From sequence record FN394989.1: 2,827 nucleotides of DNA, one strand, 5' to 3'. The translations under genes and the position numbers were made by a program. Below the pieces are notes generated by a model. That model ran no database searches. It worked only from the letters and a program-made list of their open reading frames with translations, and was not told the DNA's origin. The DNA comes from Enterobacteria phage CUS-3. Shown here piece by piece: positions 539-2,827 of the stretch (positions are counted from its first letter, which is position 1; every line of letters begins with the position of its first letter).

Positions 539-1762
539 TCTGAGCCATGTGTAAAATATTATGATGGCATTCTGTATCTGACGACCAGGGGGACATTAAG
601 TACTCAACCCGGTAGTTCATTGCACAGAAGCTCTGATTTAGGTACATCATGGAATTCTCTTCGCTTCCCAAATAATGTTCATCACTCAAACCTTCCTTTT
701 GCCAAAGTTGGCGATGAGCTGATTATTTTTGGCAGTGAGCGCGCATTTGGTGAGTGGGAAGGAGGAGAACCTGATAACCGTTATGCAGGAAACTATCCAA
801 GAACATTTATGACCAGAGTTAACGTCAATGAGTGGAGTCTGGATAATGTAGAGTGGGTTAATGTTACTGATCAGATTTATCAGGGCGGAATAGTTAACTC
901 TGCGGTTGGTGTTGGTTCAGTTTGTATCAAAGACAACTGGCTGTACTACATTTTCGGTGGGGAAGACTTTCTAAACCCATGGAGCATAGGGGATAACAAC
1001 AGAAAATATCCTTATGTTCACGATGGTCACNNNNNNNNNNNNNNNNNNNNNNNNNNNNNNNNNNNNNNNNNNNNNNNNNNNNNNNNNNNNNNNNNNNNNN
1101 NNNNNNNNNNNNNNNNNNNNNNNNNNNNNNNNNNNNNNNNNNNNNNNNNNNNNNNNNNNNNNNNNNNNNNNNNNNNNNNNNNNNNNNNNNNNNNNNNNNN
1201 NNNNNNNNNNNNNNNNNNNNNNNNNNNNNNNNNNNNNNNNNNNNNNNNNNNNNNNNNNNNNNNNNNNNNNNNNNNNNNNNNNNNNNNNNNNNNNNNNNNN
1301 NNNNNNNNNNNNNNNNNNNNNAGCGGCGGTGAAACAACGTCTTCAGCAGATGGTGCAATGATAACGTTGCATGGTTCCAGAAGCAGTACTCCACGTCGCG
1401 CGGTATATAACGCACTCGAACATCTTTTTGAGAACGGAGATGTTAAACCTTATCTTGATAATGTAAATGCTCTTGGTGGTCCGGGAAACAGGTTCTCGAT
1501 AGTTTATCTTGGCTCCAATCCTGTGGTTACCAGTGACGGAACATTAAAGACAGAGCCGGTCTCTCCTGACGAAACATTGCTGGATGCCTGGGGTGACGTC
1601 AGGTATATCGCTTATAAATGGCTGAACGCTGTCGCTATAAAGGGGGAAGAAGGGGCGAGGATACATCATGGTGTAATCGCGCAGCAACTTCGTGATGTTC
1701 TTATTTCTCACGGACTCATGGAAGAAGAAAGCACAACATGCCGCTATGCCTTTCTTTGCTAT
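539..1762 (+). CDS. Tailspike endo-N-acetylneuraminidase (endosialidase), internal and C-terminal portion; 5' and 3' ends missing, interrupted by N-run 1031-1321
   Basis: Frame 2 has no stop codons in 539-1030 (164 codons) or 1322-1762 (147 codons). Segment 1 (…YYDGILYLTTRGT…RSSDLGTSWNSL…KDNWLYYIFGGEDFLNPW…) has beta-propeller sialidase character, including an Asp-box SSDLGTSW at 629-652. Segment 2 (…VVTSDGTLKTEPVSPDE…GARIHHGVIAQQLRDVL…) matches the stalk end and C-terminal intramolecular chaperone domain of K1-phage endosialidases. The 291-N run is a multiple of 3 and keeps the frame. The ORF track misses this frame only because it has no in-window ATG start. Confidence 0.8.
1031..1321. other. 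Run of 291 N inside the tailspike reading frame
   Basis: Directly visible. Length is 97 codons and frame 2 is open on both sides, so the hidden stretch is plausibly a frame-preserving part of the tailspike between propeller and stalk. Confidence 0.9.
1532..1762 (+). other. C-terminal intramolecular chaperone / self-cleaving domain of the tailspike (peptidase S74-like), N-terminal part
   Basis: Ser codon AGT at 1532-1534 and Lys codon AAG at 1547-1549 form the S-D-G-T-L-K motif. This corresponds to the Ser/Lys catalytic dyad at the autocleavage site of endosialidase C-terminal chaperone domains (established for K1F endoNF). The domain continues into the N-run at 1763. Confidence 0.65.
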
Positions 1763-2179
1763 NNNNNNNNNNNNNNNNNNNNNNNNNNNNNNNNNNNNNN
1801 NNNNNNNNNNNNNNNNNNNNNNNNNNNNNNNNNNNNNNNNNNNNNNNNNNNNNNNNNNNNNNNNNNNNNNNNNNNNNNNNNNNNNNNNNNNNNNNNNNNN
1901 NNNNNNNNNNNNNNNNNNNNNNNNNNNNNNNNNNNNNNNNNNNNNNNNNNNNNNNNNNNNNNNNNNNNNNNNNNNNNNNNNNNNNNNNNNNNNNNNNNNN
2001 NNNNNNNNNNNNNNNNNNNNNNNNNNNNNNNNNNNNNNNNNNNNNNNNNNNNNNNNNNNNNNNNNNNNNNNNNNNNNNNNNNNNNNNNNNNNNNNNNNNN
2101 NNNNNNNNNNNNNNNNNNNNNNNNNNNNNNNNNNNNNNNNNNNNNNNNNNNNNNNNNNNNNNNNNNNNNNNNNNNNNNN
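1763..2179. other. Run of 417 N; expected to hide the tailspike 3' end, the intergenic region and the neuO 5' end
   Basis: Directly visible; length is 139 codons. Upstream frame 2 is still open at 1762 and the downstream ORF begins with ATG exactly at the first real base (2180). Confidence 0.9.
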
Positions 2180-2827
2180 ATGTTGTTTTCCGTTGATGAT
2201 AATGGGTCAGGTAATGTTTTTGTATGTGGAGATCTTGTAAATAGCAAAGAGAATAAAGTTCAGTTCAATGGAAACAATAACAAACTTATTATAGAAGATG
2301 ATGTTGAGTGTCGATGGCTTACCGTAATATTTAGGGGTGATAATAATTACGTAAGAATACATAAAAACAGTAAGATTAAAGGTGATATTGTCGCAACAAA
2401 AGGTTCAAAAGTTATTATCGGTAGAAGAACGACAATAGGTGCAGGTTTTGAAGTCGTCACTGATAAGTGCAATGTTACAATTGGCCATGACTGCATGATA
2501 GCAAGAGATGTTATTTTGCGTGCATCAGATGGGCATCCTATATTTGATATTCATAGCAAAAAAAGGATTAATTGGGCAAAAGATATCATTATATCTAGTT
2601 ACGTATGGGTAGGGAGAAATGTCTCTATAATGAAAGGAGTATCTGTTGGAAGCGGATCTGTCATTGGGTATGGGAGTATTGTAACTAAAGATGTGCCATC
2701 TATGTGTGCAGCAGCCGGTAATCCAGCAAAAATAATAAAAAGAAATATAATATGGGCAAGAACGGATAAAGCGGAGCTAATTAGTGATGACAAGAGATGC
2801 TCCAGCTATCATGCGAAGCTCACGCAA
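2180..2827 (+). CDS. neuO: Polysialic acid O-acetyltransferase (hexapeptide-repeat acetyltransferase), 3' end beyond window; true 5' start probably within the preceding N-run
   Basis: Frame-2 ORF from ATG 2180 is open for 216 codons to the window end with no stop. The translation shows hexapeptide-repeat acetyltransferase signatures (…TIGHDCMIARDVILRASDGHPIFD…ISSYVWVGRNVSIMKGVSVGSGSVIGYGSIVTKDVPSMCAAAGNPAKIIK…). It is AT-rich and sits immediately downstream of an endosialidase tailspike, the known location of neuO in prophage CUS-3. The acetyltransferase family call is well supported by the sequence; the neuO identity rests on context and recall. Confidence 0.8.
   Translation, partial: MLFSVDDNGSGNVFVCGDLVNSKENKVQFNGNNNKLIIEDDVECRWLTVIFRGDNNYVRIHKNSKIKGDIVATKGSKVIIGRRTTIGAGFEVVTDKCNVTIGHDCMIARDVILRASDGHPIFDIHSKKRINWAKDIIISSYVWVGRNVSIMKGVSVGSGSVIGYGSIVTKDVPSMCAAAGNPAKIIKRNIIWARTDKAELISDDKRCSSYHAKLTQ

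Follow-up and report, generated by a model that had tools for sequence, protein, structure and literature searches.

A CUS-3 typing sequence composed of separate fragments and carrying the known siaK1-neuO capsule module

Structure of the record

The window analyzed here, a single stretch of 2,827 bases, is almost certainly a composite typing record of CUS-3, a P22-like temperate phage of Escherichia coli K1, and the biology encoded at positions 539–2827 is that of a known capsule module. It consists of four separately sequenced fragments, namely the terminase small subunit gene, two siaK1 pieces, and neuO, with runs of N between them. Seventeen GenBank "CUS-3 genotype" records (genotype GT_n) in the phage collection, each also 2827 bases long, match the window at 98.1 to 99.8%, and their titles name the partial proviral terminase gene, siaK1 gene, and neuO gene of Enterobacteria phage CUS-3. 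None of the phage collection's records reaches 100% identity to the window over all four fragments; the highest is 99.8%. The feature coordinates are the same in all five sister records that were fetched, and the N runs are identical in both of those compared base by base. Sister records also name K1 hosts and annotate the 1–438 fragment as terminase.

The three N runs differ in kind. The first, 100 N at 439–538, is an arbitrary spacer between two unlinked amplicons and is found at the same coordinates in the sister records FN394993 and FN394990. In the complete CUS-3 genome (CP000711), the terminase gene and the siaK1 fragment lie 18,251 bases apart and are therefore not neighbors in the phage. 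The second run, 291 N at 1031–1321, is a placeholder of true length for the unsequenced siaK1 residues 651–747, as the corresponding gap in CP000711 is exactly 291 bases, and the siaK1 reading frame is kept across it. Likewise, arithmetic on the exact CP000711 matches identifies the third run, 417 N at 1763–2179, as a placeholder of true length, which hides the final 87 codons of siaK1 plus its stop codon (264 bases) and, beyond them, the 153 bases between siaK1 and neuO together with any neuO promoter. The second and third runs keep the true genomic spacing, whereas the first does not.

The terminase small subunit fragment (1–438, plus strand) is a complete coding sequence without its stop codon. 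It matched phrog_309, "terminase small subunit" (E = 2.1e-68), in PHROGs and gave no Pfam match at a threshold of 0.01. It corresponds to CP000711 22265–22705 with 432 of 438 bases identical; the six differences are synonymous and the protein is identical.

The missing neuO repeat

In genomes, neuO contains a tract of AAGACTC repeats (poly-psi) that begins two bases after the ATG; the repeat mechanism, the encoded heptads, and natural copy numbers of 2–93 have been described (PMC3046976). The site of this tract in the window is the junction 2184/2185 on the plus strand (ATGTT|GTTTTCC), where there are zero copies, and a tandem repeat search of the window found none. Across this junction, the window is shorter than CP000711 by exactly 133 bases, or 19 × 7. 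With identical flanks, the tract has 19 copies in CP000711, 20 in UTI89, and 18 in IMT5155. We measured 23 loci (22 complete genomes among the matches listed, plus RS218); the excess in span was always a multiple of seven, corresponding to 8–49 copies, and the copy number was in frame at six of the 23.

The literature describes slipped-strand gain and loss of AAGACTC copies as the switch that turns neuO ON and OFF; the gene is in frame only if the copy count is divisible by three, and NeuO activity increases as more RLKTQDS heptads are encoded. When we varied the copy number in silico, 0, 3, 12, and 21 copies gave a full-length protein, and 1, 2, 19, and 20 gave a truncated one. Genome annotations give a 258-residue protein in IMT5155 (18 copies) versus a 111-residue stub in UTI89 (20 copies).

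The repeat-free junction is common to all five fetched sister records, and strain IMT5155 is represented both by a record without the repeat (FN394994) and by a complete genome with 18 copies. Because sister records lack the tract, including that of a strain with 18 genomic copies, the lack of it reflects the record and not the phage. It follows that the in-frame, zero-repeat NeuO of 216 residues is uninformative on the ON or OFF state, since the tract was cut from the record. We infer from the records that the tract was probably left out deliberately, which would make sequences from different strains alignable.

Two candidate explanations of details at this junction were rejected. The repeat tract does not lie under the third N run, as that run represents the true 417-base distance to the neuO ATG and the tract is absent at 2184/2185. 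A T/C difference at 2184 among the sister records was considered as excision in two registers; because the IMT5155 genome reads ATGTC(AAGACTC)18GTTTT, with ATGTC ahead of the repeat, the difference is a true SNP (Leu2 or Ser2).

Taken literally, the window would be an unbroken natural stretch of a prophage that has been rearranged or has decayed, with the terminase gene lying against a truncated tailspike gene and with a natural zero-repeat neuO allele locked ON. A literal reading does yield an intact 216-residue NeuO from the true ATG, and repeat-free NeuO is enzymatically active (PMC3046976). However, the sister records come from different K1 strains and yet share a length of 2827 bases in 17 of 17 cases, with the same coordinates and repeat-free junction in five of five fetched and the same N runs in two of two compared, and the IMT5155 record lacks a repeat that the genome of the same strain carries in 18 copies. 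Moreover, zero copies have never been seen, either in the reported range of 2–93 (PMC3046976) or in the range of 8–49 at the 23 loci. Natural continuity is thus very improbable and close to refuted. [quoted passage not shown]

As parts of a composite record, the two siaK1 pieces (539–1030 and 1322–1762) are in frame and 100% identical to CP000711, which is the CUS-3 of E. coli RS218. Only 311 of the 981 SiaK1 residues are readable because N runs interrupt the gene at 1031–1321 and 1763–2179. Fragment 1 (539–1030, plus strand; exactly CP000711 3522–4013) encodes residues 487–650, the C-terminal part of the catalytic six-bladed beta-propeller. It matches Pfam End_beta_propel at profile positions 192–355 of 367 (E = 1.6e-104), and the full CUS-3 protein matches the same profile with E = 1.2e-233. 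A pattern search placed an Asp-box, SSDLGTSW (S-x-D-x-G-x-x-W), at 629–652 on the plus strand; the full protein has two such boxes, at residues 262 and 517, and only the second falls inside the window. The sialidase-type beta-propeller with an Asp-box that had been predicted is thus present.

Fragment 2a (1322–1531, plus strand; residues 748–817) is the end of the stalk, a triple-beta-helix domain of the mature tailspike, and the 1322–1762 piece matches Pfam End_tail_spike at profile positions 91–160 of 160 (E = 6.4e-33). Fragment 2b (1532–1762, plus strand; residues 818–894) is the start of the C-terminal intramolecular chaperone domain and opens with the conserved processing site Ser818–Asp819, the serine codon being at 1532–1534. 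From Ser818 onward, it matches Pfam Peptidase_S74 ("chaperone of endosialidase") over profile positions 1–58 of 58 (E = 1.4e-11). The claim of a self-cleaving C-terminal chaperone domain therefore holds for the start of the domain, of which the first 77 of about 164 residues can be read in the window. For the identical siaK1, the CP000711 annotation records endo-alpha-sialidase activity by direct assay (annotation's PMID 16689790).

In the PDB, the best structural matches of the siaK1 fragments are the endosialidases of K1F (endoNF) and phi92, with E = 1e-80 or better in the propeller comparison, in agreement with the expectation that a protein search would return phage endosialidases. Fragment 1 aligns without gaps to residues 336–499 of the endoNF chain in 1V0E, and its residues 2 (E), 17 (R), and 68 (R) face identical residues at chain positions 337, 352, and 403. 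SiaK1 Glu488, Arg503, and Arg554 are thus conserved in endoNF by alignment, and we take their endoNF counterparts to be the active-site residues Glu581, Arg596, and Arg647 (chain index plus 244). At the other end of the mature protein, the endoNF crystal chains (1V0E, 3GVK/L) stop exactly opposite SiaK1 residue 817, and the chaperone-domain chain of endoNF in 3GW6 spans fragment 2b (E = 9.2e-61) with an alanine opposite Ser818.

From what is published on such enzymes, SiaK1 would act as a trimeric tailspike whose beta-propeller binds the K1 capsule's alpha-2,8-polysialic acid and cleaves it, and this cleavage would allow the phage to reach the cell surface. The C-terminal chaperone domain would drive folding of the trimer and then be removed by the cut at the conserved Ser818. 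The identification as an endosialidase tailspike stands, while the P22-type head-binding domain behind the "tailspike" call belongs to the full-length CUS-3 protein and lies outside the window.

It is barely plausible that the source of the siaK1 fragments is not the CUS-3 prophage but a lytic podophage specific for K1, of the K1F kind or a similar one. Other phage records, for example vB_EcoP_ZX5 and vB_EcoP-720R6, do contain the siaK1 fragments at 99.5 to 99.6% identity, and among solved structures K1F endoNF is the nearest. However, the fragments match CUS-3 at 100% identity, the P22-type head-binding domain is part of the full-length CUS-3 protein, and a downstream neuO occurs, among the matches listed, only in CUS-3-type prophages (CUS-3, phiv205-1, and E. 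coli chromosomes).

The polysialic acid O-acetyltransferase

Downstream of the CUS-3 siaK1 pieces, neuO occupies 2180–2827 on the plus strand; it starts at the true ATG and ends with the last sense codon, and both the repeat tract and the stop codon are absent. Positions 2185–2827 match CP000711 1592–2234 exactly, and TAA comes next in the genome. The encoded protein is identical to the crystallized polysialic acid O-acetyltransferase NeuO (PDB 3JQY) over 214 aligned residues (query 3–216; E = 3.4e-142) and matches Pfam Hexapep (E = 4e-11), so that both the hexapeptide acetyltransferase predicted on the same strand and its proposed relation to NeuO are confirmed. The next best PDB match is OatWY, the meningococcal polysialic acid O-acetyltransferase (2WLC; E = 3e-31). 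The alternative of a generic sugar O-acetyltransferase, of the maltose or galactoside type and unconnected with polysialic acid, can be dismissed for practical purposes: the protein shares the hexapeptide fold with those enzymes (E = 1e-15 to 1e-19), but the NeuO identity and then OatWY rank far ahead of them. NeuO His119 (2534–2536) corresponds to catalytic His147 of the crystallized form with four added heptads, the numbering offset being 28 residues (PMC3046976).

According to the literature, NeuO, the product of a cargo gene, moves acetyl groups from acetyl-CoA onto sialyl residues of the host capsule. O-acetylation by neuO reduces killing by lytic K1 phages and by neutrophils, a study that also treats neuO prevalence (PMC13001214), and DsdC control has been described (PMC9659370).

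The acetyltransferase gene is AT-rich, as had been stated, with a GC content of 36.1% compared with 43.9% for siaK1 and 46.9% for the whole phage. The order in CP000711 is siaK1, 153 bases, neuO, and then the integrase gene, with siaK1 and neuO on the same strand. When the real siaK1-neuO intergenic region was scanned for promoters, there were six sites against 5.7 ± 2.6 in shuffled controls, which is no excess. The best candidate promoter, ATGACA-17-TAAAAT plus a TG, stops 17 bases short of the neuO ATG and is under the N run in the window. An Rfam scan of the window gave no match.

Locus and host

The host, the integration site, and the phase state are matters that nothing in the window itself shows. 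UTI89, which carries an identical locus, served for the genomic checks that the original prediction had proposed, a prophage at argW and a kps/neu capsule cluster. In this genome, the prophage integrase gene adjoins tRNA-Arg(CCU), beside yfdC, and the K1 kps/neu cluster with its alpha-2,8-polysialyltransferase is present at pheV. The integration site of CUS-3 is reported as argW (PMC9659370).

Discussion

The original prediction described a known CUS-3-like arrangement of endosialidase and neuO, and the exact CP000711 match in the same order and on the same strand agrees with it. All three of the protein features that it named lie on the plus strand at the positions given, with support well beyond chance. 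Judged by sequence identity, the siaK1-neuO pair is this already known system, and CUS-3 itself rather than merely CUS-3-like. The composite nature of the record, the fact that the terminase gene is not a neighbor of siaK1, and the absence of the phase-variable repeat had been missed.

In the siaK1-neuO pair, CUS-3 offers a textbook example of how a prophage can both recognize a major virulence capsule and modify it. Structures have been solved and phenotypes recently studied for this module; therefore, the window adds nothing new to it. The slippage-prone repeat, which is what makes the neuO locus interesting, is the one thing missing from the window. More generally, N runs in a window can signal a concatenated typing record, and features such as the adjacency of terminase and tailspike genes or an "ON" neuO without repeats can then stem from how a record was edited and not from biology.

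Among known sequences, the nearest in form are the GenBank CUS-3 genotype records FN394218 and FN394986–FN395002, from typing of a K1 strain collection, which share the length and layout of the window. Every one of those listed is set apart from it by a few SNPs. The GT_9 record differs from it by five SNPs (one in siaK1 and four in neuO), and the GT_6 record also by five, all within the terminase gene. The phage itself, CUS-3 (CP000711; P22-like, genus Lederbergvirus), has base-identical siaK1 fragments and neuO with matching gene order, strand, and spacing. Absent from the window but present in CP000711 are the AAGACTC tract with its 19 copies, the stop codon of neuO, and the sequence covered by N; in the window, moreover, the terminase gene has been placed artificially beside siaK1.

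At the protein level, the endoNF of coliphage K1F (1V0E, 3GVJ-L, 3GW6) and the phi92 endosialidase (4HIZ) share with SiaK1 an architecture of propeller, stalk, and chaperone domain. The N termini differ, however, as endoNF has a T7-type adaptor, whereas CUS-3 SiaK1 has the P22-type head-binding domain. The crystallized NeuO (3JQY) contains four engineered RLKTQDS heptads (PMC3046976), whereas the NeuO encoded in the window contains none, and OatWY (2WLC) belongs with NeuO to the same left-handed beta-helix family.

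Layout of the typing record

The readable sequence comprises four pieces (1-438, 539-1030, 1322-1762, and 2180-2827); the N runs between them are 100, 291, and 417 bases long. A single open frame on the plus strand spans the whole of each piece, and stops are abundant in the other five frames. Long ORFs were also listed across the N runs; these are spurious and arise because N is translated as X. When the window was compared with phage records by megablast, 17 entries matched, all of 2827 bases and with 98.1-99.8% identity. Each of these sister records names its E. coli K1 strain of origin and bears the title 'Enterobacteria phage CUS-3 partial proviral terminase gene, siaK1 gene and neuO gene, genotype GT_n'. 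Four partial CDS features in the five sister records examined reproduce the window coordinates exactly, and the N runs are the same in the two records aligned base by base. No retrieved record agrees completely with the window throughout its four pieces; the five differences from GT_6 all lie in the terminase gene, and those from GT_9 are confined to siaK1 and neuO.

As the reference genome, we used that of complete CUS-3 (CP000711, 40,207 bases), to which the three right-hand pieces are exact matches. Measured against it, the 291-N run has the length of the real gap within siaK1, and the 417-N run is as long as the real stretch between the second siaK1 fragment and the neuO ATG, which contains 87 codons and a stop followed by a 153-base intergenic region. 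The 100-N run is arbitrary, as 18,251 bases separate the terminase small-subunit gene and the siaK1 fragment in CP000711. The record represented by the window is a composite made for typing, with an artificial terminase-siaK1 adjacency.

The terminase small-subunit gene (1-438, plus strand; CP000711 22265-22705) was identified by a PHROGs match, while no Pfam model matched its protein at E<=0.01. Klebsiella phage phiKp_30 and Escherichia phage N7 carry this piece at 96-99% identity. Six of its sites differ from CUS-3 of strain RS218, all synonymously, whereas siaK1 and neuO show no difference from RS218. By sequence comparison, the head end of CUS-3 seems to have had a different history from the tail end, through mosaic exchange.

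Endosialidase SiaK1

Fragment 1 of siaK1 (539-1030, plus strand, residues 487-650) matches Pfam End_beta_propel (1.6e-104) and carries the Asp-box SSDLGTSW at 629-652 (plus strand), in agreement with the sialidase-type beta-propeller of the original prediction. The proposed search against phage endosialidases likewise returned the expected relatives, with ungapped alignments to endoNF (1V0E) and the phi92 endosialidase (4HIZ). The endoNF active site comprises Glu581, Arg596, and Arg647, and the window residues opposite these in the 1V0E alignment are identical to those of endoNF.

In fragment 2 (1322-1762, plus strand, residues 748-894), the first 70 residues close the stalk domain (End_tail_spike, 6.4e-33), and the remainder is the start of the intramolecular chaperone domain (Peptidase_S74, 1.4e-11), which had also been predicted. 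Residue 817 faces the end of the mature endoNF crystal chains. The chaperone-domain structure 3GW6, the non-cleavable serine mutant, crosses the 817/818 boundary with an Ala facing Ser818. At its N-terminus, outside the window, full-length SiaK1 of CUS-3 also carries a head-binding domain of the P22 type (Pfam Head_binding, 5e-66; the P22 and Sf6 tailspike structures match), and it is through this domain that SiaK1 counts as a tailspike. Endo-alpha-sialidase activity is recorded as directly assayed in the CP000711 annotation.

At the DNA level, the phage records vB_EcoP_ZX5 (39.6 kb), vB_EcoP-720R6 (46 kb), and Phi05_2388 B / Phi05_1999 B match the siaK1 fragments with 99.5-99.6% identity; this closeness suggests that the endosialidase module was shared among phages very recently. 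In strain IMT5155, the tailspike gene beside neuO (L010, the IMT5155 stretch, 1-316; record 493496-496234) is annotated as a pseudogene ('missing N-terminus'). It has 2739 bases versus 2946, and this CUS-3 prophage may have decayed while neuO remains in frame.

Acetyltransferase NeuO and its excised repeat

The predicted hexapeptide-repeat acetyltransferase (2180-2827, plus strand) is NeuO. Its translation contains Pfam Hexapep, and the top structure match is crystallised NeuO (3JQY, E=3.4e-142), with 214 aligned residues (query 3-216) identical. The meningococcal polysialic acid O-acetyltransferase 2WLC follows at 3e-31, and maltose and galactoside acetyltransferases are far weaker matches. 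His119 of the window corresponds to the catalytic residue numbered His147 in the +4-heptad crystal form. The GC content of neuO (36.1% versus 46.9% for the phage) fits its description as an AT-rich moron. Outside the window, the interval between neuO and int contains a terminator-like hairpin with a T run (L002, a stretch of CP000711, 6494-6513, minus strand), in the orientation that would terminate int; the neuO strand gave no corresponding terminator.

In CP000711, neuO starts with ATGTT, 19 copies of AAGACTC, and then GTTTTCCGTTGATG, whereas the window reads ATGTTGTTTTCCGTTGATG, exactly 133 bases (19x7) fewer at the repeat site. Tandem Repeats Finder detected no tandem repeats in the window, and the repeat-free junction (2184/2185) is common to all five sister records examined. 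IMT5155 has 18 copies in its complete genome versus none in its typing record FN394994; therefore, the tract was removed during record making, and the repeat is excised from the record.

Across 23 loci (22 listed complete E. coli genomes plus RS218), the span matching 539-2827 is longer than that of the window by exact multiples of seven, with 8 to 49 copies, divisible by three in 6 of the 23. An in silico frame test gave full-length NeuO at 0, 3, 12, and 21 copies and a shortened product at 1, 2, 19, and 20. Because the repeat was edited out and the frame depends on copy number, the ON/OFF state cannot be read from the 216-aa NeuO of the window. Annotation tracks phase: IMT5155 (18 copies) has a 258-aa acyltransferase (L010 470-1246), UTI89 (20 copies) merely a 111-aa C-terminal stub (L004, the UTI89 stretch, 6097-6432), and CP000711 (19 copies) no annotated CDS for neuO. 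Automatic annotation of neuO thus varies with the phase of whichever clone was sequenced. Protein-based surveys would undercount the gene.

Position 2184 is T in the window and C in four of the five sister records compared. An editing artefact was ruled out, as the C is present in the IMT5155 genome (L010 470-476). This is a real SNP, giving TTA (Leu) versus TCA (Ser) at codon 2 after the repeat is restored.

Host context and relation to CUS-3

Because the window holds no host DNA, the capsule cluster and the argW prophage were sought in UTI89, whose locus is 100% identical, and both were present. The order there is siaK1, neuO, integrase IntS, tRNA-Arg(CCU), and yfdC, and the site is argW, the one given for CUS-3 (PMC9659370). 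UTI89 also carries kpsFEDUCS, an alpha-2,8-polysialyltransferase, neuC, neuB, and kpsTM beside tRNA-Phe. Every sister record names a K1 host. Of the 5426 complete E. coli genomes in the collection searched, 161 have neuO; reported frequencies are 43.5% of 8,659 K1 genomes and 88.1% of ST95 (PMC13001214). Outside the window, the immI region of CP000711 upstream of ant contains an Rfam sar RNA (L002 1450-1517, minus strand, 84.6 bits, E=4e-17); sar is the P22-type antisense RNA that belongs to the ant/mnt immunity region.

The mechanism is taken from the literature. The tailspike degrades polysialic acid, allowing the phage to reach the cell, and NeuO O-acetylates the capsule of the lysogen. Capsule O-acetylation is reported to lessen killing by lytic K1 phage and neutrophils and to increase serum sensitivity (PMC13001214), and neuO is activated by the host regulator DsdC, bound within and downstream of the coding sequence (PMC9659370).

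Corrections to the original prediction concern the nature of the record, namely its composite make-up, the artificial adjacency, and the excised repeat. The prediction had called the system a known, CUS-3-like one; its observation is confirmed and its reading supported, and with siaK1 and neuO pieces that agree exactly with CP000711, the system is the already known CUS-3 itself.
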